NCBI GenBank assembly: GCA_964493715.1
Contig: CAZBPC010000010.1
Coordinates: forward strand, 278-64,277
Direction: 5' to 3'
DNA: 64,000 nt
From: an uncultured archaeon
Lineage (GTDB): Archaea; Asgardarchaeota; Lokiarchaeia; Sigyniarchaeales; SOKP01
A program made the position numbers and the translations under genes. The notes below the pieces were generated by a model. That model was not told the DNA's origin and searched no databases. It saw only the letters and a list, made by a program, of their open reading frames with translations. Positions 47 through 61,421 of the stretch are shown here, piece after piece; the stretch's first letter is position 1, and each line of letters starts with the position of its first letter.

Positions 47-75
47 ATTGTCATTTACTCTATTAGAATGACAAT
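47..75. promoter_or_regulatory. Inverted repeat ATTGTCATT-N11-AATGACAAT, candidate operator of the AbrB-PIN operon
   Basis: Perfect 9-bp arms at 47-55 and 67-75 read directly. It follows an AT-rich TATA-like stretch (38-48) and overlaps the first in-frame ATG (68). TA operons are commonly autoregulated through such palindromes. Confidence 0.35.
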
Positions 76-337
76 AGAATGTGAAATGATCATGACAGAA
101 AAGATAACTCAAAAAGTTTCTTCAAATGGGCGTATTGTAATCCCTAAGGAGTGGAGAGATAAACTGGCAATTGAGGATAAGAACGAAGTTGAGATGGAAT
201 TGAAAGAAGACAAGACTATATTGATCAAAAAGAAGATTCACCCGTTAGAAATTAATGACAACTTATTTGAGGGAGTTTCACCTTTTACAGAAGATGAATT
301 GAAAGAAGCGAAAAAATCGGTATTTCCAGGTGAGTGA
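68..337 (+). CDS. AbrB/SpoVT-family (swapped-hairpin) antitoxin
   Basis: Motif SSNGRIVIPKEWRDKLAIEDKNEVEMELKEDKTILIKK is typical of AbrB/MazE-type DNA-binding antitoxins. It ends 12 nt before the PIN ORF. The true start may be an internal Met (M7 or M9). Confidence 0.75.
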   Translation: MTIECEMIMTEKITQKVSSNGRIVIPKEWRDKLAIEDKNEVEMELKEDKTILIKKKIHPLEINDNLFEGVSPFTEDELKEAKKSVFPGE

Positions 338-349
338 CTAATAACCCAG

Positions 350-742
350 ATGGCTGTAGTCGATGCTCAAGTATTATTCTATTTTCATTATGATTATAAA
401 AAAATACCACTTCTGCTTCAAAAGCTGAAAAACGAAGTTATTAAAGGAGATTTCATGGTGATTATTCCCACCATCGCAATCTCAGAGTTATTTTGGAAGA
501 TGAGAAAAGCAGGAAAGATAAATGCTTTTAAAAAAGCTTTAGCCCGATGGGAAGCATCTGAGAATATTATTATTGATGATTTTGATTTAAAAATTATTAA
601 GCTGATGCTAAAAAACACGGAAAGTCATGAACTCCACGATGAGATCATAGCAATGACGTGTAGAAAATACAATACACACATTATTTATTCTACAGATGCA
701 AAATTTCGAGAAATTTTCAATTTAGAACTTAGATCCTGGTAG
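350..742 (+). CDS. vapC: PIN-domain ribonuclease toxin (VapC-like)
   Basis: 130 aa with an N-terminal VVDAQV Asp, then acidic residues in ISELF, HDEII and STDAKF at PIN-like spacing. Paired with an upstream AbrB antitoxin. Confidence 0.7.
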   Translation: MAVVDAQVLFYFHYDYKKIPLLLQKLKNEVIKGDFMVIIPTIAISELFWKMRKAGKINAFKKALARWEASENIIIDDFDLKIIKLMLKNTESHELHDEIIAMTCRKYNTHIIYSTDAKFREIFNLELRSW

Positions 743-834
743 TTACTATTTATAAATTATTAAAAAAAAGAAAATAAAAGCTACTCAGAATAAATATGAA
801 TATGGTGGGCGATTATATGGGTATGGGTGTTTAA

Positions 835-1077
835 ATGGGAAAAGTTGAAATTGACGATCGTGGGAGACTAACGCTACCATCAAAAATACGAGAAAAACTG
901 TTGATAAAGTCAGGGGATAAATTAACGATAAAGGTTAACATGGATAATTCTATTACAATTAAGAAAAGCCCTACTAAAGACCAGATTTTCAAAGATTTAG
1001 GTGGTTGTATTAATACTTCTAATGAAGAAAAAGTTACTCCGGAGATGATAAAAAGCATATGGAAACAAAATCCGTAG
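835..1077 (+). CDS. AbrB/SpoVT-family antitoxin-like protein with no adjacent toxin
   Basis: VEIDDRGRLTLPSKIREKLLIKSGDKLTIKV matches the AbrB/SpoVT looped-hinge pattern. No toxin-sized ORF follows before 1195. Confidence 0.7.
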   Translation: MGKVEIDDRGRLTLPSKIREKLLIKSGDKLTIKVNMDNSITIKKSPTKDQIFKDLGGCINTSNEEKVTPEMIKSIWKQNP

Positions 1078-1194
1078 TTTTTATTGAGATAATTGATCCT
1101 ATACCTTAAGAGGCATATATTTTCTAATATCTCCCCTTTCAGTTAAGATATTTACCGATTGATTTAATAATTTTGCTGAGTTTAATCTTATTAG

Positions 1195-1398
1195 GTGATG
1201 AATATTTCGAAAATTGATCAAATTATTGATGAATTAAATCAGTTCCCTGAAAAACTCTTGGAAGAAATTTTTGATTATGTTAAGTATCTAAAAGCCAAAT
1301 TAATTAAGGATAACATGGAAACTGCGATTGTAAGTGAATCGAGCTTGAAAAAAGATTGGTCTCGTTCAGAGGAAGACGAAGCATGGCAAAATTTGTAA
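1195..1398 (+). CDS. Small antitoxin-like protein upstream of MazF
   Basis: 67-aa acidic helical protein (QFPEKLLEEIFDYVKYLKAK) overlapping the MazF start by 16 nt. Assigned mainly by position. ATG at 1198 is an alternative start. Confidence 0.5.
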   Translation: MMNISKIDQIIDELNQFPEKLLEEIFDYVKYLKAKLIKDNMETAIVSESSLKKDWSRSEEDEAWQNL

Positions 1399-1715
1399 AG
1401 GGAGATATCGTAGTTATTCCTTTTCCCTTTTCTGATCTTTCTCAAGCTAAACGCAGACCAGCTTTAGTAATTAAAGATTTAATCGGTGATGATCTCATTT
1501 TATGTCAAATTACTAGTCATAGTATCGCTGATCAATATGCTATTTCTTTAGATGATGGAGATTTTCAAAGTGGTTCCTTGAAAAGAAAAAGCAATATAAG
1601 ACCAAACCGGATTTTTACGGCAGATACTCATATCATTTTGTATAAAATTGGACAAGTAAACAATGATAAATTAAAGGAAGTAGTGGAAAAGATTATTCAC
1701 ATCATTCAAGCATGA
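1383..1715 (+). CDS. mazF: MazF/PemK-family endoribonuclease toxin
   Basis: KGDIVVIPFPFSDLSQAKRRPALVI is the hallmark PemK/MazF N-terminal motif. I place the start at ATG 1383 (MAKFVKGD); the ORF track opens at 1356. Confidence 0.8.
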   Translation: MAKFVKGDIVVIPFPFSDLSQAKRRPALVIKDLIGDDLILCQITSHSIADQYAISLDDGDFQSGSLKRKSNIRPNRIFTADTHIILYKIGQVNNDKLKEVVEKIIHIIQA

Positions 1716-1759
1716 GGGATGATTAATCTATATAGAATGAGTTTAAAAAAAACTAAAAT

Positions 1760-2089
1760 CTATAGGGTAAAAAGCTTTTTAATTTTATTATTTACTTCAT
1801 GCTTTATAACGTTAGAAATTTGCCCTAATTCACCAATAATTAATTTTTTATCAATAGTAGCAATTTTATCCAAGTATATCGTTGAACTTACTTTTAAACC
1901 TGTCATTGAAAATGATTGATGATTCTTCTCCATGAATACATGATGAAATTCTATTGGTTTGGGTATAATAGAAGAAATAAAAGCAACTACCACATCATTT
2001 GGTCTTTCAAGAAGAACCAACGCTGGTCTCCTCTTAGTACTTGTTAAATTCGTGAATGGAAATGGTAATAATACGATTTTGCCTTTCAT
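1760..2089 (-). CDS. mazF: MazF/PemK-family endoribonuclease toxin (second copy)
   Basis: KGKIVLLPFPFTNLTSTKRRPALVL motif. 4-nt overlap with the upstream antitoxin ORF. Convergent with the first mazF. Confidence 0.8.
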   Translation of the reverse strand: MKGKIVLLPFPFTNLTSTKRRPALVLLERPNDVVVAFISSIIPKPIEFHHVFMEKNHQSFSMTGLKVSSTIYLDKIATIDKKLIIGELGQISNVIKHEVNNKIKKLFTL

Positions 2090-2328
2090 GTATATCGCTT
2101 TATTAGGTCTTGATCTGTATATAAGTCTGGTTCGTTTTCCAGAAATTCTTTTAGAGAATTTTCAGAAAGTTCATGTAATTCTTCAATCACGATTGGTCCT
2201 TCGTGTGATTCTAGTTCCTTCATGTATTTTTTAATCGCATTGCTTGCAATGAAAGCCCAGTTGATTTCAGGATGTTCTTCTATCTTTTTTGCTAACTCTT
2301 CTGGGAGTGAAATTTTTAATTCTGTCAT
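2086..2328 (-). CDS. Antitoxin-like protein of the second MazF module
   Basis: 80-aa acidic ORF whose stop overlaps the mazF start (ATGA-type coupling). No family motif recognised. Confidence 0.55.
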   Translation of the reverse strand: MTELKISLPEELAKKIEEHPEINWAFIASNAIKKYMKELESHEGPIVIEELHELSENSLKEFLENEPDLYTDQDLIKRYT

Positions 2329-3786: not shown

Positions 3787-4737
3787 TTAGTATTTCTTAG
3801 CAATTTCAGCTAATTTATCGTTTAAGTTTGAAACTGTTTCGTGCCAAGAAGTTATGATTTCTTCCACTCGCGGTATTGTGAGGCTTATTTCTTTATATTC
3901 TAAGTATTTGGTAAATTCTTTCATGTTTTCAATTTTAATGAAAGTTTCAGCTACATATTGACGAATACTACGGATTTGATTCTGAAGAACATCTTGAATT
4001 CTATTAGACTCTCCTTTTCTAATGAGTGTTTGGATATATTCTTCTGTGCCAAGTAGCTTTGAGTTGAGTTCCTTGACTCGATCAGCAATGAATTGCTCGT
4101 AGGTACCTAAAAGATTTTCTTTAGGAAAGAATTTAGTTATATCTATGATGAATCTTTGTGTTTGAGCGATTAATTGATCCATTGACTCGAATCCTAATAT
4201 GTTGTAATCTGTTGGGGAGTATGATGCTACAATTCCTTTAGATACATCATCTAATCGGAATATTTTAAATCCAGGATCATTTTTGAGCTGAATTACAGGA
4301 TCTCCTTTTCTATTTGGCATTTCAATTTGGCGAAGAAGACGTTCGGGATTGAAAACTAATGAAATTGCTAATGGATTATTTGTTTGAAAACTCAAGGTCG
4401 TTTTAATATCAATATGACTCATCATTACTTTGAAACCTGGATGACTATGCCACCATCCAACGGTAAATTCTCCTTTTGAAAATGCTTCTTCATCAATAAT
4501 ATAGAGAGCTTCATAATCTTCATCACTCCACTTGTATTGATCAATAACTGCGTCTCTATCTAATTCTTGATGCATTATTGGATAAGTCTCCGTAATGATA
4601 ACATCATCTCCTTCGTTTTTTCCAATAAAGATACCGCTAACTTCTAGCCAATCATCTCTTGGAATCTTTTGATTGGCAAATCTTACAGTTGCTGCCACAA
4701 TGGTATTATATGCTACTTTGGGGATTATAACAGTCAT
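3787..4737 (-). CDS. JAB1/MPN/Mov34 metalloprotease (intact JAMM motif) with a helical C-terminal domain
   Basis: Glu in LEVSGIFIG (E32) and WWHSHPGFKVMMSHID, an exact H-x-H-x7-S-x2-D. The roughly 130-aa C-terminal region is helix-rich. Paralogous to 7509..8996 and 9000..10343. Confidence 0.85.
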   Translation of the reverse strand: MTVIIPKVAYNTIVAATVRFANQKIPRDDWLEVSGIFIGKNEGDDVIITETYPIMHQELDRDAVIDQYKWSDEDYEALYIIDEEAFSKGEFTVGWWHSHPGFKVMMSHIDIKTTLSFQTNNPLAISLVFNPERLLRQIEMPNRKGDPVIQLKNDPGFKIFRLDDVSKGIVASYSPTDYNILGFESMDQLIAQTQRFIIDITKFFPKENLLGTYEQFIADRVKELNSKLLGTEEYIQTLIRKGESNRIQDVLQNQIRSIRQYVAETFIKIENMKEFTKYLEYKEISLTIPRVEEIITSWHETVSNLNDKLAEIAKKY

Positions 4738-4904: not shown

Positions 4905-5546
4905 ATGACAGAACAAGGTTTTATTCCTCTGAGTAGTCAGCTTGGAATACCAGGTACCTCTTATCGAATTCAATTAGGAGTGATCAACGATAAATGGGCA
5001 TCAAGACTTTTGAAAGGAAATGATATTATTGATTCATATATCTATAAAGACGAAGATGCTGGAGAACAAGGCTTTCCAAACCAAAATATGATTGTAGGAT
5101 GGGTATTAAGAACGATTGCCATCCCAAATATTAATCCTCACCAAATCATGAAAACCACTCAAGTTTTGGTAAAACAAGCAAGGGAAAAAAAGGATCAACA
5201 AAAAGTTATAGCACCTGTTTCGGAAACACGAGAGGTTGAGTTAGAAAAGGTGCCTGAAAATGAATTAAAAAGACCGAAAGTTCAAGGTTGGGTCAAAGAA
5301 GATGGGATGAAATCTGCTGACGAGTTTGAAGTTGAAAAAAGAGAAGCTTTTCAATTAAGACTAGCGGCCAAGAAAGAAGAAGAAAGGCTGAAAGCAAGTG
5401 CTTCGGGATCAACAGCCCATACAACTAGACAGCTTCCATCTATTCCAAAAGCTCAAGGAGCAGAACCTTCGAAATTCTGCCCCTCTTGTGGGAAAGATTT
5501 AGATTGGAAATTCTGTCCGTATTGTGGCGAGAAATTACCTCACTAG
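4905..5546 (+). CDS. Hypothetical protein with a charged linker and a C-terminal double CxxC zinc ribbon
   Basis: C-terminus FCPSCGKDLDWKFCPYCGEKLPH. Lys/Glu-rich middle region. N-terminal domain not recognised. Divergent from the MPN gene. Confidence 0.6.
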   Translation: MTEQGFIPLSSQLGIPGTSYRIQLGVINDKWASRLLKGNDIIDSYIYKDEDAGEQGFPNQNMIVGWVLRTIAIPNINPHQIMKTTQVLVKQAREKKDQQKVIAPVSETREVELEKVPENELKRPKVQGWVKEDGMKSADEFEVEKREAFQLRLAAKKEEERLKASASGSTAHTTRQLPSIPKAQGAEPSKFCPSCGKDLDWKFCPYCGEKLPH

Positions 5547-5644: not shown

Positions 5645-7384
5645 ATGTTTGATACCACAAATCTTAAGGATCCAATCTTAGCAGGACATGGTATTGCTAG
5701 ATTTTTAAGATCTCATGGGGTTACACGTGTTTTTGGAATTCCTGATGGTCATAGTTTAAGTTTTTACGATGGTATCTTAGCAACAGAAGGATTAGAACAT
5801 GTATTATTTAATGATGAACGCAATGCAGCATTTGCAGCTGATGCATATTCGAGAGTAATGGGAATGTTGGGTGTTTGCGACGCAGGAGCTGCGGGTTCAA
5901 TGAACTTTCCCATTGCTTTAGCAGAAGCGAAAGGTTCAGCGTCTCCAGTTTTAGCAATAGCCGGAGTTGTGAAATCGACTGATGTTTTAAAAAATATTCC
6001 ACATGATATCAATGTCACTAAAACACTTGAAGCGGTAACTAAATGGACTGGAACAGTACTTAACCCCGAAGATTTACCCCGTTTTCTGAAATATGCTGTT
6101 AAACAAGCGATTAATGGTAGACCAGGCCCTACAGCTTTGGTGATCGCTGAAGATGTGATGAATTCAAATGAAATAAAAATAAAGGAATTCATGCCTAGGT
6201 TCGGGGGAAGTTGTTCATTAAATAGTTGTCGAGCTATGGCAACATCTAGTGAAATAGAACAAGCAGTTTCAATGATTGAAAACTCAAGACAACCTGCAAT
6301 TTATTGTGGCTCAGGAGCGTTAATATCAGGAGCTTTTGAAGAAGTAAAAACGCTTAGTAATATCCTTCTTGCTCCTGTTTTTTCTACGATTTCAGGTAAA
6401 GGTATCATGACTTCTAGTCAATCACCTGAAAATCTTTACTTTGGCACCATTGGTTTATTTGGAGAAAAACCTAATCACAAATTTATACGTACTAAATCAG
6501 ATTTATTGATAGTAGTTGGAAATCGCCTTACTGAAGATGATACGGCTAATTTCAAAGTCCCCTCCAAAAGAATGGAAATGATACAAATAGATGTTGATCC
6601 TAGTGAGATTGGATTGTCATACAATCCATGGGGTATCATCGGTGATCCAAAAGAATCATTAAAGTTAATAATAGATACATTAAAAATTCATAAAAGTTTA
6701 AATGGAGAAGTTTTAAAAAACCGCCTGAAAAATATTGATATACTTAGAAATGATCATTTACGTTACCGAGAATCTGATAATATATTATGGATGAATGCTG
6801 ATCCTATTAAACCTCAAAGAATTTTGAAAAGCATTTCCGATATTATGGGAAAAGATGATTATTTAGTCACTGATGCAAGTGCAAGTTCTAGATGGATCGG
6901 TCCATATTTTCCTGTGAAAAAGATTGGGCGTCGGATAATTTCTCCTCGCGGTGTTGGACCTACTGGTTTTGGAATTGGAGGATTAATCGGAACTTGTATA
7001 GCATCAAAACAGCTAAATTCCAATAGATCCAATTCAAAGACGATCTTATTTACAGGAGATGGCGGATTGATGAATGGGGGTATTTCTGAATTTGAAACAA
7101 TTAAAAAATTAGATCTTAACTGCATAATTGTAATAATAAATAACTTTTCACTTGGATTTATAAAATTTGGCCAAGCTATGCTTTTTAAACATAGATATTA
7201 CGAAACAGATCGCCCTAAAACAGATTTTGCAAAGATTGCTGAAGCTTTTGGAGGTAAAGGATATCACGTAGATAGACTTAGTGAATTAGATCATACTTTA
7301 AAAGATGCATTTAAAGGAGAAGGTTTCAAATTAGTCGATATCTCCGTCGATCCTAAGGAGTTTCTTCCTCCTAATTTCTATTAA
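5645..7384 (+). CDS. Thiamine-diphosphate-dependent enzyme (acetolactate synthase large-subunit-like family)
   Basis: 579 aa. N-terminal pyrimidine-binding region with Glu (NDERNAAFAADAYSR). C-terminal ThDP motif GDGGLMNGG...IIVIINN. Substrate cannot be assigned. Confidence 0.75.
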   Translation: MFDTTNLKDPILAGHGIARFLRSHGVTRVFGIPDGHSLSFYDGILATEGLEHVLFNDERNAAFAADAYSRVMGMLGVCDAGAAGSMNFPIALAEAKGSASPVLAIAGVVKSTDVLKNIPHDINVTKTLEAVTKWTGTVLNPEDLPRFLKYAVKQAINGRPGPTALVIAEDVMNSNEIKIKEFMPRFGGSCSLNSCRAMATSSEIEQAVSMIENSRQPAIYCGSGALISGAFEEVKTLSNILLAPVFSTISGKGIMTSSQSPENLYFGTIGLFGEKPNHKFIRTKSDLLIVVGNRLTEDDTANFKVPSKRMEMIQIDVDPSEIGLSYNPWGIIGDPKESLKLIIDTLKIHKSLNGEVLKNRLKNIDILRNDHLRYRESDNILWMNADPIKPQRILKSISDIMGKDDYLVTDASASSRWIGPYFPVKKIGRRIISPRGVGPTGFGIGGLIGTCIASKQLNSNRSNSKTILFTGDGGLMNGGISEFETIKKLDLNCIIVIINNFSLGFIKFGQAMLFKHRYYETDRPKTDFAKIAEAFGGKGYHVDRLSELDHTLKDAFKGEGFKLVDISVDPKEFLPPNFY

Positions 7385-7508: not shown

Positions 7509-8996
7509 ATGCCTAAAATTGGCGAAGAATTCCCAGTAATTATCAAATCATTAGCTTATTATAAAATGATTGTTCATGTGCTCCGTTTTGGTTCAAAGGT
7601 AATAGATCCAAATCAATGTAAAGAAGTAATGGGAGGATTAATTGGTTATATCAAAACTGAAGGAGATAAAGAATTTTTAGTAATTGAAGATGCCGTTCCA
7701 GTTTCCCATGGAGGTGCGATCGAAGTGCGATATTCTTCAGAACAATTAGGAGCTTTTGAGAGAATAGATAGTCGCGTCTTTGAAAAGTTTGGAGATCTTG
7801 GGTGGTTTAGTTGTGGTTGGTATCATTCACATCCTAATCTTTCACCATTTTTCAGTGGGACTGATATACAAAATCAATTATTTTGGCAAGCTAGGAATCC
7901 TGCAGGAGTGGGACTCGTTTTTGATCATGCTCTTTTAGAAAATCAGGGAAATCTAGGATTTAAGGCTTTTAGATTAGATGATCCATCAAAAACTAGGAAT
8001 ACAAATTATCATGAAGTAAAGGTGATGGTTGAGCCCCCCAATGATGTCAATTATTACAATAAAATAATTTATTTAATCGGAAATGTTTATTCTAAAGAAG
8101 TTCCAATATTGGAGCTAAATGAGACAACGAATTTCTTTGATGACATTTTTATTCCTAGTAATGAGCAATTAATGATAAAAAAACCAGAATTAAATGAAAA
8201 TCAATTGATAAATTCATTTAAAGAGGGTATTTCAAGCTTTATAGAACAATCAATGGTTCCCTTGATTACTGTTTTGAATGCGTGGAGCCAGGAAAATCTT
8301 AAAAAATCGTTCCAAAATAGCGTAAAAATGAGAAAAGACATAATTGAGTTAAAATCCAGCTTGAGTCAAGGCATGACGAGTATTCAAAAAACATTCAACA
8401 ATTCACTTCATGATGAATTGGAAGAATTGGATAATTTTGTTGATGATCGACTTGATATTTTTGATGAAAAACAAAATAATCTTCGAGAAAAGATTACAAA
8501 ATTAGAAGGAGATATTCAAATTCTCATAACTAACGCTTTACAAGAAGGTTTAACACATTTAAATGAAGAAATTCTTAATAATTTTAAGAAATCTTCATTA
8601 TTGTTATTGGAAATAGATAAAAAACAATCTAATATCATCAATAATCTCGAAAATAGTAATATAACACTTCAAGAAATGATAAAAACCTTAGAACCATCAA
8701 AGATTAGAATTGTTGGAGAATTTGATAATATAAATGATTCTATCCTTGAGAATGTCAAAAAGAAATTGAAGTTAACAGAAACTAAATTTGAATCACTTGA
8801 AGATGAACCAAAAAAACTCCTATCTGATCTGAAAGCTGCGATTTTGGTATTAGAAGGTTCAAAAGACCCAATCAATCTTAAAATTGATAGACTAGAATTG
8901 GATAAAAAGAATTTACATGAAAAATTAAAAGAGTTAAGGACAGAAAACGCTGAACTATTGAAAAAAATTAAAGAATTTGAAAAGAAGGGTGAATAA
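7509..8996 (+). CDS. MPN+ (JAMM-intact) protein with a roughly 300-aa coiled-coil C-terminal region
   Basis: E39 in KEVMGGLIGY. GWYHSHPNLSPFFSGTD gives H106-x-H108-x7-S117-x2-D120. From about residue 200 the sequence is heptad-like and E/K/L/N/I-rich. Confidence 0.85.
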   Translation: MPKIGEEFPVIIKSLAYYKMIVHVLRFGSKVIDPNQCKEVMGGLIGYIKTEGDKEFLVIEDAVPVSHGGAIEVRYSSEQLGAFERIDSRVFEKFGDLGWFSCGWYHSHPNLSPFFSGTDIQNQLFWQARNPAGVGLVFDHALLENQGNLGFKAFRLDDPSKTRNTNYHEVKVMVEPPNDVNYYNKIIYLIGNVYSKEVPILELNETTNFFDDIFIPSNEQLMIKKPELNENQLINSFKEGISSFIEQSMVPLITVLNAWSQENLKKSFQNSVKMRKDIIELKSSLSQGMTSIQKTFNNSLHDELEELDNFVDDRLDIFDEKQNNLREKITKLEGDIQILITNALQEGLTHLNEEILNNFKKSSLLLLEIDKKQSNIINNLENSNITLQEMIKTLEPSKIRIVGEFDNINDSILENVKKKLKLTETKFESLEDEPKKLLSDLKAAILVLEGSKDPINLKIDRLELDKKNLHEKLKELRTENAELLKKIKEFEKKGE

Positions 8997-8999
8997 AAC

Positions 9000-10343
9000 A
9001 TGCATAATAACAATGAGAGTAAAGAAAATGTCGATATACAAGCTGTGGCTTTTAGAAAGATGATATTTCACGTGCTAAGGTTTGTGAATGAAATTAAAGA
9101 TGAACCAGTAGAAGTATTAGGCTTAATTATTGGCAATTTTAGTTCTGAAAAGGGTAGCTTGGCTATCACAGATTCAATTCCTTTATTACATGGAAATAAT
9201 GTAGAATTAGGCTTATCTCAAGAGCTCTATGATTTATTTGAACAAGTAAAAGCATCTCATGATTCAATTATCGGTTTTTATGTTTCTCATCCAGGTTATG
9301 GTTTATTCTTGACTGATTCTGATAAGAAGATTCAACATTATTTCCAAACTGAAGATAATCCAAATGCAATCTGTATAGTATTTGATCATGCTCAAATTGA
9401 TGATAATTTTGGTGTGAAAATTTTTAAATTTAAAGACTACAATAATCCAGAAGAAATTATTGAAATTATCCCACATATCCTTGTTCCTGACAGTCTCGAA
9501 TACTTCAAATGGGTCCAAGAACTAATTGAAAATTATCAAAGAAAAGAACCAATTATTATTAAAGAATATCTTGAAACTCAAAAACCACTTCTCGAAGAAT
9601 TACAGGAGATACCTCAATTACCTGACATTAATGATGAATCAAAAGAAAAACCATCTTCTCAAATGGAAAATTCGATAATTGGTATTCGAACTGGTGCAAG
9701 TACGCTTGCTGATACGTTTGTAAACAATTATTTAAATCAGTTGGATGTATGGCTAAATGATATAGAAGAAGGGAGTCTAAAAGGCGGAGATTTCATCCAA
9801 AGTTCTTTAAATCAGCTTAAAAATACAATTGGAAAAGGTTTAGAAGGTTTGGAAAATTATTTTCAAAAAAAGTTTAACGAAATCTCAGCCGTATTTGTTG
9901 ATGGAATAACTGAATCTTTAGAATCAAGAATCAAAAATCAAAATGATCTAGAAAATTACATAACTTCTATTATTGATAACGTTATTAATAATTCTAACGA
10001 GGTTATCGAGCAAAAACTTAATGAGTTAACAAATGTTGTTGGATCCCAAGTCAACCAATTAGATGAGTTAGTTATGAATCATGATAAAAATGCCAATCGA
10101 ATAGTTGAACTAATTGAAAACAACAAGAATAAAATATCATCACTTTATTCCATATTAGATGATTTTTCGGTAGATGTGATTAATAAGCTAGATACATCCA
10201 ATTCCCAATTTGAGAAGGCAATATTGAATGCGATTGAGAATCAAGGTATAAATTTCGTATCAATCAATGAAAAATATGGAGAAATAGAATTACTTATTGA
10301 AAGGCTCCAAAATCTTATATCTGATTTCAGACAGATGAAGTAA
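9000..10343 (+). CDS. MPN- (degenerate JAMM) paralogue with a coiled-coil C-terminal region
   Basis: Same fold signature (FHVLRF, VEVLGLIIG, IVFDHA), but the motif reads FYVSHPGYGLFLTDSD. The first His is Val (V95) and the Ser is Thr (T105). Starts 3 nt after the MPN+ stop. Confidence 0.8.
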   Translation: MHNNNESKENVDIQAVAFRKMIFHVLRFVNEIKDEPVEVLGLIIGNFSSEKGSLAITDSIPLLHGNNVELGLSQELYDLFEQVKASHDSIIGFYVSHPGYGLFLTDSDKKIQHYFQTEDNPNAICIVFDHAQIDDNFGVKIFKFKDYNNPEEIIEIIPHILVPDSLEYFKWVQELIENYQRKEPIIIKEYLETQKPLLEELQEIPQLPDINDESKEKPSSQMENSIIGIRTGASTLADTFVNNYLNQLDVWLNDIEEGSLKGGDFIQSSLNQLKNTIGKGLEGLENYFQKKFNEISAVFVDGITESLESRIKNQNDLENYITSIIDNVINNSNEVIEQKLNELTNVVGSQVNQLDELVMNHDKNANRIVELIENNKNKISSLYSILDDFSVDVINKLDTSNSQFEKAILNAIENQGINFVSINEKYGEIELLIERLQNLISDFRQMK

Positions 10344-10360: not shown

Positions 10361-10630
10361 TTAAAATTTTAAAGTAGCTAATTTAGCAACGTTTAACTTA
10401 TATTTAGGGATATTTGTATTGAGTCTTTTTAATTGATTTTGTTTAGCAAGATTATTTAAAATTCTTCCTATTCTATCTACACGGATGTTAATACCATAAT
10501 TTTCTTTTAGCACCGAATTAATTTTATATGATGAGAGAATCACCATATTTGAAATATTCTTGTCGCAAAGCATTTCAATTGCTTGACGAATTAGTGATAA
10601 TAGAGTTTCCTTATCGGGTTTACTTTCCAT
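10361..10630 (-). CDS. Hypothetical small protein (possible winged-helix)
   Basis: 89-aa ORF. Helix-turn-helix-like stretch RVDRIGRILNNLAKQNQLKRL. No family recognised. Confidence 0.4.
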   Translation of the reverse strand: MESKPDKETLLSLIRQAIEMLCDKNISNMVILSSYKINSVLKENYGINIRVDRIGRILNNLAKQNQLKRLNTNIPKYKLNVAKLATLKF

Positions 10631-10782
10631 AGGTAATATAATATATCTTGCAATCTTTTTAAAATTTTCAACTCTAATGAACTATACATAATAACCTAAT
10701 ATTGGGAATTTATTTAAGAAAAAAATCATTAATTAAAGATAATTTATATCTCTACGTTATTATTCGTATATATGGGGTTAAA

Positions 10783-13104
10783 ATGAAGGCAACAGAATAT
10801 TTAACTCAATCTAAAAGAAAGCTAAAGGAAGTTTCAAATAAAATCTTATATCAAGAAATTATTGTTGATGGTCAAGAACCACCAAAATTCTATTCTTATG
10901 AAAAGAAATTTATGGGTTTGTATGCTATTTTTCTTTTTTATTCATTCCTCATTTTATTTGCCATTAATTATCCTCGGCATGCTTTAGTCCTTTTTTTTAC
11001 AATTGGAAATCCTTTTGCATTTGGTAATGCCATTATAGGACTTTTCATCTCTCTTGCTATTCTATTCAGCATTGATAAAGTTCGTGTATTTATATTTGAA
11101 AGAAATACAGCTATTAAACAAGTAGTTCTTTATGTTGGATTAATGGCAGGATATCTTTTACTTTTTTCATTCTTAACTTCTACGGGGTTAAACTTTATGA
11201 GTTATTTATTAGGTTTGTCAACGGTTTGGCTAATTTTATTGAGTACTCGATTTTTTATGTATTCTCGTAAATTTGCCACTAAAATTGAATCTCGATTTAT
11301 TTCTAAATTTACAGTTACAAGGAGTTCAATTGCATTCATTGCTCCATATTTTATATTAGCTGTATTAGTTATTTTAGCTTTATTTTATCGAAGTTTATTA
11401 GTATTTCTATCACTTGATTTCTTTGCTATACCAGCTCCAGTAGAAGCTGTTTCAGTATACATCTTAGAAATGAGAGTAATAATGCCCCTTATTTACTTTA
11501 GTTTGATTCTAACGTTATTATTCATCTTATTTGAATTTGTATTTACACGTAGAAGAGCAGAAACAAAAAGAGCGGGTGTGTATGATAATTATACTTTTTC
11601 ATTAATTGTATTATTCATATTCTTTTTCCAATTACTTCAAGTTAGTATCTACTTGATTCTGCATGAAGAGACGATTTCTGCAATAAAAACAACCGTAGGT
11701 GCTACAAGTGCCACGGTTACTTACATATTTATTTTTGAATTTATAATTTCAATGTTCTTCCTCTATCGCATTGTAAAGAAATTAGGACGATCAATTGGAT
11801 GGCGATTATTAATATTTAAAAAAGATGGATTAATGGTATTGATTTTAGGTTGTGTTTATGCTCAGACGCTTTCTCGATATGCTCTTCAAAATCAAATACC
11901 ATATCAAGGTATTACAGTGGTAGGTCAAATATTCATGGCGGATAAATTTCTTGTTTCTATAATTATGATTATATTCCTTGGACTAACTTTATTGGTATAT
12001 TATTTGAAACCTCATGAAACTTCAATGTTTATTAGATTACAAAAAGAAACAGTCTCTGAAGAAGAAAAAGATTCCGATATCGTGCTGAAATTAATAAGGA
12101 GTGAATACATTCGAAGAGGTGAGGCATATCCCATCGAAATTCTAGAAAGAGAGTTAATTAAATCAACAAGACTTTCAAAACAAAAAGTTTATTCAATAAT
12201 CAACAAATTAGCTTCTGATAATATCGATATAAAGATAAGCAATAAGAAAGATGATTTAGGAATGACGCATAAATATCTTGATTTTGTCTCAGTGATAGAA
12301 AAATTCGATCGGAAAGGAGTAGCAGATAAGAAGGCAAAAAAGTATCTCAGTGAAAGATTATTTGACACCATGTCTAAAAAAGAAAAAACACTCAAATTAG
12401 GAGGAAATTTACAATCCAATGGTTCCTCAAATCAATTCTTGAATTCTTTATCTACTGACTATACCAAGAAACAATTAGATGAAAAAAATATAAAAACCCA
12501 ACAAAAAAGCACCACTTTTTCGTTCGCTCAGAAAGAAATTCCTCCTTCACTAAAGAACAATATTATACTCACAATAAAAAAGGAATATACATATAGAATC
12601 GAAAATGCGGATAAATATCCAGATTTTCATTTTTGTATTTCTGAAATAGCCTCTGAAATACAATCAGAAACAAGGATAACAGTTGGTGAACTCTATCCAA
12701 TACTTGAGACTATCAATGAATCAGACATCGAGTTTGAGTTGCTCGATAATCAAGAAGAACCTGATGATAAAATTATTAGTTTTTTTCCCATTGCGGATTA
12801 TGATTTAAGCTATATTATTTCAAATTTCCGTCCTGAAGAATATGTTAAAATAAAAATACGATTATTAAAGCAATTTCTAAAATTTTTTAACCGCAAAAAG
12901 GTTAAAGCTACTTTCACAAAATTAAAGAAAGAAATAACAGATAAGAATGACGTAGATAAATCCTGGAAGCAAATTTTGACAAGATTAGAAAATTACTTTA
13001 CAGATTATTCAAACACTCACATAAAACTTATCAACGGTGAAGGTGGAGAAAAAATATTTGATCAATTCCCAAAAAAAAATATTGACATTTTTGATTTTGA
13101 ATAG
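10783..13104 (+). CDS. Polytopic membrane protein with a roughly 370-aa cytoplasmic tail carrying two wHTH-like segments
   Basis: About a dozen hydrophobic segments in the first 430 aa, then a soluble Lys/Glu-rich tail. I prefer ATG 10783 (MKATEYL); the ORF track starts at TTG 10702. Confidence 0.6.
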   Translation: MKATEYLTQSKRKLKEVSNKILYQEIIVDGQEPPKFYSYEKKFMGLYAIFLFYSFLILFAINYPRHALVLFFTIGNPFAFGNAIIGLFISLAILFSIDKVRVFIFERNTAIKQVVLYVGLMAGYLLLFSFLTSTGLNFMSYLLGLSTVWLILLSTRFFMYSRKFATKIESRFISKFTVTRSSIAFIAPYFILAVLVILALFYRSLLVFLSLDFFAIPAPVEAVSVYILEMRVIMPLIYFSLILTLLFILFEFVFTRRRAETKRAGVYDNYTFSLIVLFIFFFQLLQVSIYLILHEETISAIKTTVGATSATVTYIFIFEFIISMFFLYRIVKKLGRSIGWRLLIFKKDGLMVLILGCVYAQTLSRYALQNQIPYQGITVVGQIFMADKFLVSIIMIIFLGLTLLVYYLKPHETSMFIRLQKETVSEEEKDSDIVLKLIRSEYIRRGEAYPIEILERELIKSTRLSKQKVYSIINKLASDNIDIKISNKKDDLGMTHKYLDFVSVIEKFDRKGVADKKAKKYLSERLFDTMSKKEKTLKLGGNLQSNGSSNQFLNSLSTDYTKKQLDEKNIKTQQKSTTFSFAQKEIPPSLKNNIILTIKKEYTYRIENADKYPDFHFCISEIASEIQSETRITVGELYPILETINESDIEFELLDNQEEPDDKIISFFPIADYDLSYIISNFRPEEYVKIKIRLLKQFLKFFNRKKVKATFTKLKKEITDKNDVDKSWKQILTRLENYFTDYSNTHIKLINGEGGEKIFDQFPKKNIDIFDFE

Positions 13105-28179: not shown

Positions 28180-28974
28180 TTATTGATAGTATTGCGTATA
28201 TTCTTTTCTTGGGGTATCTGGGAGTTGTTGTGCTTGTTGGTATTGATGAGCTTTCTCCGCCAATTCTAACATTTTTTTCTTAATTTCTTTCCCCTCTTCT
28301 ATTAGTTTCGAAGTATCTATGTCTAGGTTATACATTTTATTTAACACCTCAATGATAGCAGCGCCACCTTCTGGTGTAGGAATCTCTAAAACAGGTGTGA
28401 ATAATGCAAAAGCTTGCAATCTACTTGATAAAGCTTCATTTAGTATAGTTGCCTCAGGGCCAACTATAATTCCTTTTTCAACCTTCTTTATATCATAAGA
28501 CTCCAATCGTTCAACAAGATCCTTTTCAGCGGCATAATATACGGGATAATCATCAATAATATCTCTCTGAGGAATGCCTTGAAAGACAACAATTTCATTT
28601 GCTCTTACATCCTCGGATAATGCCCAATTATTAATGGTTCTACTGAGATCGTTATATGCTGTTGATACTTGAAATGGAACTTCAGCGACTCCTACTATAA
28701 GATCATGAGATGGTGAATAATATAACCTGAATGGATGTTTTAGTACACCGTCATAAAATACGCTAATAGGTGGAAGATATTCCGAAGTTATAAATCCAAT
28801 CTCTTTAATGTCGGTTATTTGATCAATGAGAGCATTTGCTACGATGGGACCGATCAATCCTATTCCTGCAAAACCTAGGATCATAGTTGCACCTGGTTTG
28901 ATCTCAGTCATCGTATCCATGACCACTATAGTACTTTTTTTACCTTTTTCGCATATATACTCTTTTTTTACCAA
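28180..28974 (-). CDS. PAC2-family (proteasome assembly chaperone, PbaA/PbaB-like) protein
   Basis: N-terminal ATMILGFAGIGLIGPIVANALI is typical of the PAC2/DUF75 family. The C-terminus ends QYYQ, an HbYX-like Tyr-X end. Confidence 0.7.
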   Translation of the reverse strand: MVKKEYICEKGKKSTIVVMDTMTEIKPGATMILGFAGIGLIGPIVANALIDQITDIKEIGFITSEYLPPISVFYDGVLKHPFRLYYSPSHDLIVGVAEVPFQVSTAYNDLSRTINNWALSEDVRANEIVVFQGIPQRDIIDDYPVYYAAEKDLVERLESYDIKKVEKGIIVGPEATILNEALSSRLQAFALFTPVLEIPTPEGGAAIIEVLNKMYNLDIDTSKLIEEGKEIKKKMLELAEKAHQYQQAQQLPDTPRKEYTQYYQ

Positions 28975-49876: not shown

Positions 49877-52800
49877 TTATTCTGTTATTTTCAATGATCT
49901 TCCACAGTTTGAACAAAACTTCTTCTGAGTCGCTAAAGGATAACCGCAATAGGGACAATATTCGAATGTAGATTTCTTTTCTTCCGATTGAGCTCTATAA
50001 GATGTCTCATCATAAGGGGAAGCATATGTACCCCATAGTTGAGGTTGAGACGTTGTTCTTCTTCTTCTGATGAACAGAAATAATAATAAAGCGATACCAA
50101 TAGCTACAATTATTCCTATGATTATAATCCAGGTCCAATCTATACCAGATCCCGCTTGAATTGATAAAATCAAGATAAAGTTTTCTGAAGCACCATCACT
50201 ATCAAATACAGTTAGTAATAAAATGGCAAGGTATCCTTCATCAGTGTCAAAATTGTAGTTTGTTTCAGTAGAGATAGATTTCGTACCCGTTATTGAGGAG
50301 TATTGAACTTCAAAGGGGATAATGAATGAACCCACTTGAGAATTGGATGTTGCTTGGTATTTGAATTCAGTAACAGGGAATGATCTAGGAAAAATAATTG
50401 AAATATATCCATCCTGTGTTGTAGACACAATGAAGAGGTTGACTGATACTCGCATTCCAGCACTATTACTATCTTCGAAGGACACGCTATCAAAAACACT
50501 TACGTTGAAATCAAATCGATTTCCTTGAGATGCGGTTACTACAAAAGTATTATTATCATTATGAGTATCTTCAAATCGAACATGTTGAGAGTTATCAATG
50601 CTGAACACGGATTTTGTCTCATCAAACTTAGGGGGGTTATTGATAATAGAAGAAAGAATTCTTGGTGAATTTGGATTAAGATAATTGGAATCTGGATCAG
50701 AAGGGATAATATATACTATAAAATCTCCAGAAGGATCACCAGGAATAGGAGTGTAAGTGGTAGAATAATTGGATGCTATATGGGTCATCGTATTAGTATT
50801 ATTTGTGGTCTGCTTTGTATTATAGTAAGAATATGTATAAGTTGCCATGTAAGCAATGACATCATAAATGTTATCATCTAATTGAGCATTGATATTTAAA
50901 GGTGAGAATCCCGTCCTTTCTACGGGGCTACTTACTGAAAAGCTGTTTATAAGAGGAATCTCTGTGGAATTATAATAAAGAAGCTTAATATTTTTATGAT
51001 ATGTTATCGTTCCTATTGTAATATTTACATTAATTATATAAGGAGTATAAGACGTGCTTGGCAATTCAAAAGTATTATTATAAGCAATCCCGTCACTAGT
51101 TGAGGTAGTCAAGATTTCCTCGTAATAACCACCATTCCGAATGGATATGTTTAAATGAGAATTTAAGTAACTAGATGAAATTGGGTCATTAGATACTTGA
51201 TCCCGCAAGAAAATCGTTAAATTGAGTTGAGGATTAGAGGTTCTTTCAGATTCTAATGCCAGGTTTATTGATATATTATCTTTCATTAAGAAGTATTCCA
51301 TCAAGTTAGATAATAATCTCGAGTGGTCGGGATTAGAATTAAAATCATCAAATAACCAATGAAGATCTCCAAATGCTACAAAACGACCTTTTCCCAAGGA
51401 ATTTCCATCAGAAACACTTACAACCTCTTTTCCATTTATGAAAGCTATTGAATCTGCCGCATTTGTTGTTGTAAATGTATTCCCATATTCCCATTTAAAA
51501 TCATTTACTCCACTAAATATTTGATGAGAGCTAAGATCATCTACAATTATGGGATCATATGAAGCACCAATTCCAAACCAAATCTCATTGATAATAGTTT
51601 CTTTGTTAACCGAGACATTCACATCTAAAACAGAGAAGAGTGAATTTATATTGTCAACGCATAACTCATTGTGACGCGTGCCAAGAAATAAGATATTCCC
51701 TCCATTATCATAGTAATTTTTCAAATTTTCCATTTCTAAAGAACTGTAAGGCAATATGGGTGTTTGTAGAACTATTAAATCATACTGTGAAACACGTTCT
51801 TCAGTAAGTATAGAATTATCAGCACTTTTGTCGTAGTACGGAGTCCAATATTGTGCTCCATAATCAATTGAGATGTTTAGATTCATCATCTCTTTCATTG
51901 CGTTATAAAAATCCACCTGATAATAAGAAAATGCAGGAAACCAATCATTTAAGCCATGATATGATTCCATCAAGATCTTATAATCAGGTAACCGCACATC
52001 AATCGTGACTTCGATAGAGTCAAAGAGAGTAGGACCACCAGTTATATTTAACATGAATGTTCTAATGCCAATGGAAGCATTCTGTTCAATTTTAATGCCT
52101 AATGAAATTACCATTTCACCAGCGCTTGAAAAATTAGCCTGTGATTTATCTAGAGATAAAATTAAACCATCAACTTCATTAGGGATATTAATTTCAAGAT
52201 CTTGACCTTTCCCAGAATAGAGCGTGATATTGAAAACTTGATAATCTCCTGGAAAATTTAAAAGATCATAAGGTTCTACCGGTAATTCATCCGGAAAGAG
52301 ATTAGCAGCATTATTTACATCCGAAAAAGTCTCATTTATATCGTGCAAATATTCCAATGACGCAGATACATTAATTATTCCCGCTCCATATTTTAAATAT
52401 TCGTGTTCTTCATTAGAAATTTTCCGTGCTCCTTCTAATAGCGCAATTCTAGCGGTTTCGGGAGTTATAGTCGGATATGCCTGTTTTAATACTGCAATTG
52501 CTCCTGATACTATTGGACATGACATACTCGTTCCACTCAAAGGAATGTAATCAGCATCCCCAGCAAAATCAAAATAATCACCAATATACCGCATTTCTTT
52601 TGAAATTACAGAATTAGGTGCCTCTGTTGAAATTAAATCAACTCCAGGAGCTACGACATCGGGGTACCCCAAATAAGACATTGTTGGACCCCAACTACTA
52701 AATGAGGCTAATGTATCCGAAGAATCTGTGGCACCCACTGAAATGATCTCTACTCCTGATGCAGGACTACCACCTGTGAAATATCCAGGACCATCATTAC

Positions 52801-60626: not shown

Positions 60627-61421
60627 TTATCTATAATATGAATCTGCACTTTTATCGTCCTCAATGGATCTCATAAAGTGTTCTGCTTGTTTTTTATATT
60701 TATCAACTACATCTTCCATTTCTTCAATTTTCTTATTTAATTCATCAAAATTCATATCAATTTTAAAGTAATCTTTGAGTAAAGTTACTAAGGCTTTGGA
60801 TGAACGTGGGTCTATTGTCATCATTGGCAATGGGAGCGTTTCAGCAAGCACACATATCCCTGGTGCAAAATTATTATGCCCCGCCCACGCAGGTAAGATT
60901 CCATTTGCTCCTGCAATAACACCTGTTTCCATCAATTTTGTATTATCATATTTAAGGAAAGAATCAACAATATTTGAATCTGTTCCACACACGTATACTG
61001 TGGGGATATCTCTAACTTTATCTGAAACCATTGCCCCAGTACTTAAATACATTTTAATTTTTCCCTTAGTTATTTTGTCCATTTCTTCACAAATTCTTTG
61101 AGAAAACTCAAAAACACCATATGACGTTTGAGGTTGATAATTTGCTGTTAAAATGAAAAAATCGTTGATGGTCTTCTCAGATTTGGGTTTATAATAAATC
61201 TTCGCGCTAGGAATTTCTAACATCCCATTTTCTACGTTAGATTTTGGAGGAAAATCATAACATGTGATATCTAAAAATTCTTCTGCTTTGATAGAATCTT
61301 TTATAGAAGTGATAGCAAGTTTAGCTACAAGGGCAATTCCGGGCCAGCCAACTAAAACCACAGGATCATGTAATTCTTCAGCATTAATTTCAAATTTCTG
61401 GTCTATTCTTATTTCCATCAA
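60627..61421 (-). CDS. PAC2-family (proteasome assembly chaperone-like) protein, second copy
   Basis: VVLVGWPGIALVAKLAITSI N-terminal motif. Same length (264 aa) as 28180..28974. C-terminus ends SYYR (HbYX-like). Confidence 0.7.
   Translation of the reverse strand: MMEIRIDQKFEINAEELHDPVVLVGWPGIALVAKLAITSIKDSIKAEEFLDITCYDFPPKSNVENGMLEIPSAKIYYKPKSEKTINDFFILTANYQPQTSYGVFEFSQRICEEMDKITKGKIKMYLSTGAMVSDKVRDIPTVYVCGTDSNIVDSFLKYDNTKLMETGVIAGANGILPAWAGHNNFAPGICVLAETLPLPMMTIDPRSSKALVTLLKDYFKIDMNFDELNKKIEEMEDVVDKYKKQAEHFMRSIEDDKSADSYYR

Follow-up and report, generated by a model that had tools for sequence, protein, structure and literature searches.

An operon-encoded pair of eukaryote-type MPN paralogs with long helical tails in Lokiarchaeia-type Asgard archaea

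A 64,000-nucleotide stretch of DNA from an uncultured archaeon of the Lokiarchaeia (contig CAZBPC010000010.1 of assembly GCA_964493715.1, positions 278 to 64,277; hereafter the window) encodes two adjacent proteins, A and B, each consisting of an N-terminal MPN domain, a linker and a long helical tail (Table 1). The complete E...H-x-H-x7-S-x2-D zinc-site (JAMM) motif is present in A but not in the B of this genome. On balance we lean toward the reading that A and B assemble, as its two subunits, into a single soluble JAMM isopeptidase complex that is shaped like a rod and belongs to a Lokiarchaeia-type Asgard clade. This reading draws on the full-length paralogy of the two proteins, the nature of their MPN heads, the persistence of the gene pair across species, the selection and co-evolution acting on it, and the predicted form of the tails.

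In the window, which has a G+C content of ~30%, the two genes lie 3 nucleotides (nt) apart and in the same frame. Both proteins score above the gathering cut-off (22.5 bits) of the eukaryote-type Pfam family JAB, PF01398. BLASTP aligns A with B over ~420 aa at 24% identity (E 9e-25), and hhalign comparison of the ortholog profiles gives a probability of 100 and an E value of 3.6e-68, with 435 colinear columns running from the first MPN strand to the end of the tail. A and B are paralogs along their entire length, not in the MPN domain alone, and the hhalign scores indicate that they are each other's closest relatives. A preliminary description of this DNA, made by reading the sequence, had reported two paralogous MPN genes 3 nt apart; its open reading frame (ORF) coordinates are exact, both products pass the JAB cut-off and the paralogy is full-length. 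It overlooked a third MPN+ gene, C, on the opposite strand upstream of the pair. The database homologs, 226 of A (~490-500 aa) and 107 of B (445-470 aa), all come from Asgard metagenome bins and are named "hypothetical protein", "Mov34/MPN/PAD-1 family" or "RPN8/RPN11". The family is small: a HMMER search of 1.84 billion representatives returned merely 115 clusters at E <=1e-30.

AlphaFold2 (AF2) monomer models of A and B were computed from 74-sequence alignments. In Foldseek searches the A model matched BRCC36 (6gvw_B, 8.5e-11), CSN5 and Rpn11 best, and the best match of the B model was Rpn11 (4o8x_B, 4.3e-12, TM 0.68 on the target); the Foldseek probability to Rpn11, CSN5 and BRCC36 is 1.00. 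Searched against the PDB, the A profile found first the Rpn11 of Caldiarchaeum subterraneum (CsRpn11; PDB 6fju/6fjv) at 1.9e-12, and also BRCC36 (5cw6_A, 3.6e-10) and Rpn11. The B profile matched Rpn11 at 2.3e-13 and CSN5 at 2.5e-12, Rpn8 just at 2e-5, and Abraxas and CSN6 were not among the matches listed. The segment of A corresponding to Rpn11 Ins-1, "SHGGxIEV" (H67-V73), is invariant in the A orthologs. Prok-JAB scores 20.9 bits on A, below its cut-off of 25. UPF0172, the EMC8/9 family of MPN pseudoenzymes, matches both proteins (B with 32.9 bits against a cut-off of 24.4), and JAB is the stronger match for both. Assignment to the JAMM1-type desampylases was ruled out: the NCBIfam model NF041370 gives 16.7 bits for B and 17.3 bits for C against a cut-off of 130, and does not match A. 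Both heads are eukaryote-type MPN domains, nearest in sequence and structure to Rpn11, CSN5, BRCC36 and the Caldiarchaeum Rpn11.

The zinc sites of the two heads had been read largely correctly at the outset. The complete site of A and its H-x-H-x7-S-x2-D spacing stand; the residues first numbered S117 and D120 are S116 and D119. In B, a Val in place of the first His and a Thr in place of the Ser are borne out by the alignments, which give V95 and T105. The analogy drawn to the active/inactive MPN pairs of eukaryotes describes the pattern in this genome; B however arose as a duplicate in its own right and does not correspond to the MPN- subunits of eukaryotes (Rpn11 at 2e-13 versus Rpn8 at 2e-5). 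The same profile scores rule out B as an ortholog of Rpn8, CSN6 or Abraxas. As judged by the profiles, B goes back to an Rpn11-like MPN+ enzyme and was created by a duplication within the Asgard archaea, in the Loki lineage. The inactive partner would have arisen independently of the eukaryotic ones, since B matches Rpn11 far better than Rpn8 and has A as its nearest relative.

Relatives of A turned up in 105 species when GTDB was scanned with one genome for each species, and the best 80 of the 105 were analysed, with taxonomy based on record titles and neighbour identity. A is followed directly by B in ~78 of the 80 species-level genomes, and the B ORF is intact in ~78 of 80. The distance from the A stop to the B ORF start has a median of 6 nt (interquartile range 2-6), and there is never anything inserted between the two genes; the adjacency first noticed in a single genome is thus a property of its relatives as well. 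Readthrough or fusion of A and B was rejected because their spacing and frame differ among species, from -32 to +6 nt and more. The junction between A and the upstream gene Z has a median of ~165 nt and carries insertions in several lineages. The window has a gene for a thiamine pyrophosphate (TPP)-dependent enzyme there, shared with two other genomes, L007 (86% identity) and L008 (76%), and absent from most species; other lineages have other insertions at this place.

The pair lies in a block of genes that is conserved in nearly all 80 loci, in the order CC260 / Roadblock-like / ATP-grasp / AAA+-VWA / C, then Z / A / B / S / M / MFS / PALP / Cu-ATPase, where CC260 is a coiled-coil protein, Z a zinc-ribbon protein and AAA+-VWA a ChlI/ChlD-type putative cobaltochelatase. 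The ATP-grasp amino-acid ligase belongs to the block in most species; the clade of the window lacks it at this locus but retains A and B. The block was considered as one large system and this was rejected. It is read as inherited synteny among close relatives because it has a chelatase-type neighbour and unrelated transporters, the neighbour genes are 76-95% identical between species, and only A and B co-evolve specifically. A wide Asgard distribution of the pair was also rejected. Some of the metagenome-assembled genomes (MAGs) carry the record labels Hod-, Odin-, Thor-, Hermod- or Heimdallarchaeota (the first four on L002, L003, L010, L019, L037, L047 and other JBHL* assemblies), but the chelatase-like proteins encoded beside their pairs share 94-95% identity with the Promethearchaeia (Lokiarchaeia) ones, and the 11-gene synteny is the same. 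These phylum labels are inconsistent with the neighbour sequences and not credible, so the pair is documented only in one Lokiarchaeia-type clade.

The five JAMM positions of A are invariant in all 81 orthologs, and those of B vary. Among 78 B orthologs, 32 (41%) keep E-H-H-S-D, an example being the B of CP070805.1. The sites of the other 46 have degenerated in various ways, with more than 12 patterns: the first His is replaced by I, L, V, S, C or T, the second His by R, the Asp by T, E, G, S or A, and the Glu by Q or D. One intact and one degenerate paralog are found in this genome and in 46/78 species, and both are intact in 32/78. The obligate active/inactive pairing that had been suggested does not hold as a property of the family, as 32/78 B orthologs keep all five residues. 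On the tree the degenerate sites fall in at least 7 separate clades, which means that the site was lost at least 7 times. The state E-[IL]-R-T-T was reached twice independently, in one group consisting of L061, L078, L039, L032 and L045 and in another consisting of L071, L035, L037, L031, L021, L055, L002, L029, L036 and L041. In trees of A, B, the chelatase-like protein, the ATP-grasp ligase and M alike, one of these groups clusters with species whose B site is intact, a long way from the second group. Because all five genes give the same grouping, an exchange of B among lineages was rejected as the cause. The change of the second His to Arg has three origins, and in the third clade (EHRSD, 9 species) it is the Arg change alone. 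To judge from the alignments, these repeated changes look like a partly convergent remodelling of a dispensable zinc site and not like random decay, and it is possible that the Arg side chain of a degenerate B fills the former zinc position.

B is under selection in spite of its predicted zinc-less head. Within the window's clade omega is 0.12-0.15 for A (head 0.07-0.10, the lowest among the domains of both proteins), 0.13-0.26 for B (head 0.10-0.24) and 0.07-0.15 for the neighbours. Selection on the head of B is ~1.5 to 3 times more relaxed than on that of A, and B evolves faster (head distance 0.93 versus 0.52). The omega of its head indicates that B is retained under purifying selection, and a decaying pseudogene was rejected on the omega of the whole protein together with the intact ORF in ~78/80 species.

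The rates of A and B are tied to each other. Mirror-tree comparison gives a raw r of 0.92 and, with the species signal removed, a partial r of 0.84; the values are 0.77 between the tails and 0.70 between the heads. Other neighbour pairs reach a partial r of at most 0.49, A with C gives -0.16, and M with A or B gives 0.23-0.41. The co-evolution of A and B is specific, and far stronger than that of either with any neighbour.

The AF2 models of A and B share a common layout, in which the MPN head is followed by a low-confidence linker with a conserved motif and then by a nearly unbroken helix of 225-250 residues. The tail helix of A has a pLDDT (predicted local distance difference test score) of mostly 76-92. 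Both tails are drawn as extended helices and not as fold-back bundles. The conservation profile shows the same plan in both tails: the proximal module and the distal part are conserved, and the stretch between them varies. The proximal module of A spans residues ~245-313, with P251 and W259, and its invariant Trp aligns with W251 of B. A distal block of ~25 residues is found in A only and is the best-conserved part of its tail, with a conservation of 0.77 over residues 441-450; L441 is invariant, and K442, A443, A444, I445, L448, E449, K452 and P454 are present at >=90%. The length of the B tail is 227 +/- 4 aa across species, though the tails change fastest in the locus (mean distances 1.36 and 1.64). 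Two longer relatives suggest that duplication of modules sets the length of the rod: the conserved proximal-tail module (PL..LN.W...) occurs twice in P0296 (683 aa), and P0275 (631 aa) contains a tandem array of four helical repeats of ~45 aa.

Averaged over each family, the tails show a hydrophobic periodicity that exceeds all 300 shuffles in power, with peaks at 3.60 (A) and 3.65 (B) and not at 3.5, where the power is low across the whole tail. The autocorrelation of hydrophobicity peaks at lags 4, 7, 11, 14/15 and 18, and the heptad phase is steady just locally (A 347-389 and 410-480). Hydrophobic residues make up 36-39% of the tails, which in the window contain four (A) and no (B) Pro residues. 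Both tails are mildly acidic, with no correlation in charge between A and B, and charge is uninformative as a test of hetero-pairing. The tails are best described as coiled-coil-type rods rich in stutters and hendecads, with heptads mixed among the hendecads. A canonical pure-heptad coiled coil is ruled out by the periods and by the merely local heptad phase; of the heptad-like tails first described, the long periodic helices stand, with a mixed 7/11 periodicity of 3.6-3.65 in place of pure heptads. Searched against the PDB, the tail profiles give weak matches to apolipoprotein A-I/A-IV (down to 3.7e-9), MCP, the ZorA tail, NDC80 and designed bundles, and the mixed heptad/hendecad periodicity explains them. 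The apolipoprotein family PF01442 was not reported for the window proteins at E <=0.1, and faint precomputed matches are seen in some B orthologs. Homology to apolipoproteins A1/A4/E is unsupported: the matches are compositional and periodic, there are no proline-punctuated 22-mers, and heptad stretches exist. No transmembrane (TM)-like segment was seen in A or B. A recognised enzymatic fold in the tails, which the preliminary description said would change its interpretation, was not detected with Pfam, the AF2 models or the PDB profile searches.

Table 1. Coordinates of the MPN gene pair, its domains and other features in the window (residue numbers refer to the respective protein)
Feature	Coordinates	Strand	Evidence or remark
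Gene A, 495 aa, MPN+ (JAMM) head and long helical tail	7509..8996	+	ORF call; Pfam JAB 37.3 bits; AF2 model mean pLDDT 75.5
A MPN domain, residues ~10-195, including Rpn11/CSN5-like SHGGxIEV	7536..8093	+	AF2 secondary structure; Foldseek; PDB profile search
A catalytic Glu E39	7623..7625	+	part of complete JAMM site
A JAMM motif H106-S-H108-x7-S116-x2-D119	7824..7865	+	E-H-H-S-D in 81/81 orthologs
A linker, residues 198-241, near-invariant PPILELNETxDLFGDI...KKPEL (E202, N204, E205 invariant)	8100..8231	+	pLDDT <50; conservation; omega 0.10-0.22
A helical rod, residues 242-493	8232..8987	+	single AF2 helix; periodicity; conservation profile
A-only ~25-residue block LSDLKAAIIxLExSKxPIxNKI, residues ~437-461	8817..8891	+	sole large B-side gap in hhalign
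Gene B, 447 aa, MPN paralog of A, with long helical tail and (in this genome) a degenerate zinc site	9000..10343	+	ORF; Pfam JAB 41.3 bits; AF2 mean pLDDT 76.8
B MPN domain, residues ~11-180	9030..9539	+	AF2; Foldseek; PDB profile search; head omega 0.10-0.24
B degenerate JAMM motif V95-S-H97-x7-T105-x2-D108, Glu E38 kept	9282..9323	+	alignments; state E-V-H-T-D
B linker, residues 198-219, invariant L201-Q-E-I-P205	9591..9656	+	pLDDT <50; invariant columns
B helical rod, residues 220-446	9657..10337	+	AF2 helices 220-277 and 281-446; periodicity 3.65; length statistics
Gene C, third MPN+ paralog, 316 aa, intact JAMM site, unrelated ~130-aa helical tail	3787..4737	-	ORF; Pfam JAB 50.1 bits
Z, 213 aa, N-terminal domain and C-terminal CxxC...CxxC zinc ribbon	4905..5546	+	
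TPP-dependent enzyme gene, acetolactate-synthase-like, three TPP_enzyme domains	5645..7384	+	insertion between Z and A
S, 89 aa, winged-helix-like by eye	10361..10630	-	no family match
M, 800 aa, ~10-12 TM-like segments (residues 70-435) and a soluble C-terminal part of ~365 aa that has winged-helix-like stretches	10702..13104	+	
MazE/AbrB-type and PIN	68..742		
Second MazE-type	835..1077		
DUF2281 and PemK/MazF	1195..1715		
PemK/MazF and 80-aa partner	1760..2328	-	
Two PAC2-family genes, proteasome-assembly-chaperone-2-like	28180..28974 and 60627..61421	-	111 and 77 bits
TnpB/Cas12f-like fragment, 154 aa	36562..37026	+	TNB domain and OrfB_IS605 end
Subtilase (Peptidase_S8), 1316 aa, with C-terminal zinc ribbon; unusual combination	49877..53827	-	IFT52 GIFT domain match 33 bits (cut-off 27.2)

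In the proposed complex A and B would be co-translated and made in equal amounts. They would pair in parallel and in register, as a heterodimer or a dimer of heterodimers, with a two- or four-stranded stalk. The MPN heads would lie next to each other, an arrangement like that of Rpn11-Rpn8 or BRCC36-Abraxas. The 225-250-residue helices would form a mixed heptad/hendecad coiled-coil stalk that, by helix geometry, would be ~33-37 nm long. A would carry out zinc-dependent cleavage of the isopeptide bonds by which ubiquitin, or a tag resembling it, is attached through its C-terminus, a substrate suggested by the fold family. B would serve as a scaffold or regulator, and in some lineages may still provide a second active site. 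Candidate sites for docking are the motifs of the two linkers (ELNET in A, LQEIP in B) and the distal block found in A only; they may keep the heads a set distance away from some partner or structure. The pairing, orientation, stoichiometry, substrate and roles of the motifs in this model are what we infer from the analysis.

Several points weigh against this model. The heterodimer is deduced from operon structure, paralogy and co-evolution, and the structural models are of monomers. Mirror-tree values may be inflated for adjacent paralogs, for example by a shared local recombination history or shared composition. The mildly acidic tails lack charge complementarity, and a higher-order bundle, or an amphipathic helix that binds a surface, would likewise be compatible with their hydrophobic content and their period near 3.65. 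Species with a full site in B (41%) may have two active heads, in which case the MPN+/MPN- label does not apply to them. No genes for ubiquitin, ubiquitin-like proteins, E1 or E2 are linked to the pair in the conserved neighbourhood of the loci examined, so that the substrate is a guess from the fold family. In the window, there is no E1 or E2 domain among the ORFs of >=120 aa and no small ORF ends in GG, in agreement with the initial remark that no Ub/SAMP, E1 or E2 gene is visible.

The two proteins might not pair at all and might instead form separate homodimeric or homo-oligomeric rods, that is, two enzymes, or an enzyme and a decoy, sharing an operon. CsRpn11 crystallises as a parallel homodimer (PMC6043591), the B orthologs with a complete site could be enzymes themselves, and the absence of the 25-residue block from B means that the rods are not perfectly matched, besides the lack of charge complementarity between them. 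We nevertheless regard separate rods as unlikely. The specific co-evolution, including that between the tails, is hard to explain without contact; the short A-B gap (median ~6 nt) is maintained across species; and loss of the site repeatedly in B and never in A fits a division of labour within one complex. The identity of the substrate raises a separate question, as the absence of linked ubiquitin-system genes would agree with a JAMM peptidase acting on another peptide or isopeptide tag or on a precursor protein. JAB domains outside the ubiquitin system are known among the prokaryotic JAB families, and the ATP-grasp ligase found beside the pair in most species could in principle make a non-ribosomal peptide tag. 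Against this, the heads are closest to the ubiquitin- and Nedd8-specific enzymes Rpn11, CSN5 and BRCC36 and to CsRpn11, the Prok-JAB and desampylase models stay below their cut-offs, and the Ins-1 counterpart in A is invariant. In addition, A and B remain in the window's clade where the ATP-grasp gene is missing from the locus, and inherited synteny seems to account for the neighbours (chelatase-like, MFS, Cu-ATPase). A substrate unlike ubiquitin is in our judgement rather unlikely.

The tails themselves permit another interpretation, as amphipathic 11-mer helices of the apolipoprotein or perilipin kind that would tether the MPN heads to a membrane or lipid surface. Such helices have a period of 11/3, which is the dominant one in the tails (3.6-3.67), and the weak repeated apolipoprotein matches in the PDB, the faint PF01442 matches and the high hydrophobic fraction point the same way, as does the multi-pass membrane protein M encoded two genes downstream in nearly all species. 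The same profiles however match MCP, the ZorA tail, NDC80 and designed bundles, a generic similarity among periodic helices; the heptad phase is locally constant; strict length conservation and tail-tail co-evolution suggest a paired rod; and M lies on a separate transcription unit and correlates only weakly with A and B. A lipid-binding tail is accordingly considered improbable. Still less probable, to the point of being very doubtful, is a mainly structural role as a cytoskeletal or scaffold rod, with the MPN heads acting as protein-binding modules like those of Prp8, eIF3f/h and EMC8/9. Tolerance of site loss in B, the UPF0172 matches and the long rods of fixed length would suit such a role, but invariance of the five catalytic residues of A and the lowest omega in its head are unexpected if catalysis is irrelevant, and JAB is a stronger match than UPF0172.

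The closest system in concept and layout would be the BRCC36-Abraxas/KIAA0157 (Abro1) pair at the core of BRISC and BRCA1-A, with Rpn11-Rpn8 and CSN5-CSN6 next. In the former an MPN+ enzyme and an MPN paralog are each followed by a C-terminal helix, and the helices pair as a coiled coil. The coiled-coil tails of BRCC36 and Abraxas are a few tens of residues long, whereas those of A and B, at 225-250 residues, are roughly five times longer. B, the proposed partner of A, differs from Abraxas in being a recent MPN+ duplicate whose site is intact in 41% of species. There is no specific orthology to the BRCC36 pair, as Rpn11 and CsRpn11 score equal or better, and no BRE- or MERIT40-like partner was identified in the conserved block. 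Rpn11-Rpn8 and CSN5-CSN6 share the concept of an active and an inactive MPN subunit; they are also the best matches of A and B, and the Rpn11-like SHGGxIEV is invariant in A. Unlike in these complexes, no PCI subunits are encoded beside A and B, the inactivation in B is lineage-specific and polymorphic and not fixed, and the 225-250-residue helices are unlike the short helices by which Rpn11 and Rpn8 enter the helical bundle of the lid. The conserved block contains no PCI, BRE or MERIT40-like gene; partners may be encoded elsewhere.

Among archaeal proteins, CsRpn11 is a eukaryote-like JAMM enzyme of the Rpn11 type and the best PDB profile match of A. It is ~200 aa long, lacks a rod and an inactive paralog, and is encoded beside a ubiquitin/E1/E2/E3 operon (PMC6043591). 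A and B, in contrast, are 447-495 aa long and come from paired genes that are not linked to ubiquitin-system genes. The archaeal JAMM1 desampylases (HvJAMM1 type) have the same JAMM chemistry but are short single-domain proteins without tails of this kind. Beyond MPN proteins, the 11-mer helices of apolipoprotein A-I/A-IV resemble the tails in a period near 11/3 and in weak profile similarity.

The third paralog, C, resembles A and B in its MPN domain only (hhalign 2e-34 with A, 2e-26 with B). Its zinc site is E-H-H-S-D in 60/62 sequences and E-H-H-T-D in 2. C has an insertion of its own (RQIE..KKGDP..QLKNDPG) and is extremely conserved, with 80-99% in most columns. The majority of relatives have C as the first of three genes in the same orientation, the others encoding the ChlI-ChlD-type AAA+-VWA protein (always ~734 aa) and the ATP-grasp ligase. 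The raw mirror-tree r of C with the VWA protein is 0.84, and no specific co-evolution of C with A or B was found.

Three uncharacterised genes, Z, S and M, flank the pair in nearly all species. S and M correlate with each other at a partial r of 0.49, and the links of Z, S and M to A and B are weak (0.2-0.4). An NCBIfam scan of A, B, Z, S and M gave weak matches without meaning. At the start of the window a toxin-antitoxin cluster (68..2328) takes the position that in most relatives belongs to the genes for the chelatase-like protein and the ATP-grasp ligase. The TnpB/Cas12f-like fragment is probably the remnant of an IS200/IS605-type element, and the PAC2-family genes and the subtilase are listed in Table 1.

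Members of the Rpn11-like MPN subfamily fused to TPR/SNAP-like solenoids were found outside the window in Helarchaeota and Lokiarchaeota MAGs (P0305, P0339, P0334, P0342, P0323 and P0297). P0305 consists of a TPR-like array, an intact MPN+ domain and two winged-helix-like segments. P0342 and P0323 give borderline matches to RPN7 (PF10602), at 30.5 and 29.4 bits against a cut-off of 29.6, and P0339 gives weak MIT and Paf67/eIF3l matches; TPR cross-matches are common. The combination of MPN and PCI-like elements in one chain, if these matches hold, could bear on the origin of the lid, the COP9 signalosome (CSN) and eIF3.

Active/inactive MPN pairs form the core of the proteasome lid, the COP9 signalosome, eIF3 and BRISC. 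An organisation of the Rpn11-Rpn8 type was stated in 2018 not to be known in archaea (Fuchs et al., PMC6043591). No description of an MPN-rod pair was found in the literature, including papers on Asgard ubiquitin and ESCRT systems; the suggestion that the archaeal pair was undescribed agrees with what the searchable literature returns. The family provides an archaeal, operon-encoded pair of eukaryote-type MPN paralogs. A further and more tentative reading, possible in our view, is that A and B are an independently evolved archaeal MPN+/MPN- deubiquitinase module whose inactive partner is still forming. It would be a two-headed rod of ~35 nm that holds a deubiquitinase a set distance away from an anchor, in which the same zinc-free state (His to Ile/Leu, His to Arg, Ser to Thr, Asp to Thr) was selected more than once, and part of a wider Loki/Helarchaeota radiation of Rpn11-like heads on helical scaffolds.

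The weight of the pair for eukaryogenesis is limited, in that it stems from a duplication in the Loki lineage, is documented only in one Lokiarchaeia-type clade and has no ubiquitin-system gene linked to it in the loci examined. Its value lies in a natural series of ~80 species: the site of the second subunit is fully intact in some and degenerate in several different ways in others, with convergent replacements among them. With this series the step from a homodimeric enzyme to an enzyme plus a pseudoenzyme can be reconstructed. MPN heads on long rods of fixed length are an unusual architecture, and suggest a spatially tethered isopeptidase in Asgard cells. If true, the Loki/Helarchaeota radiation of MPN scaffolds, including the combination of a TPR-like array with MPN and winged-helix elements, could bear on how the PCI/MPN assemblies of the lid, CSN and eIF3 originated.

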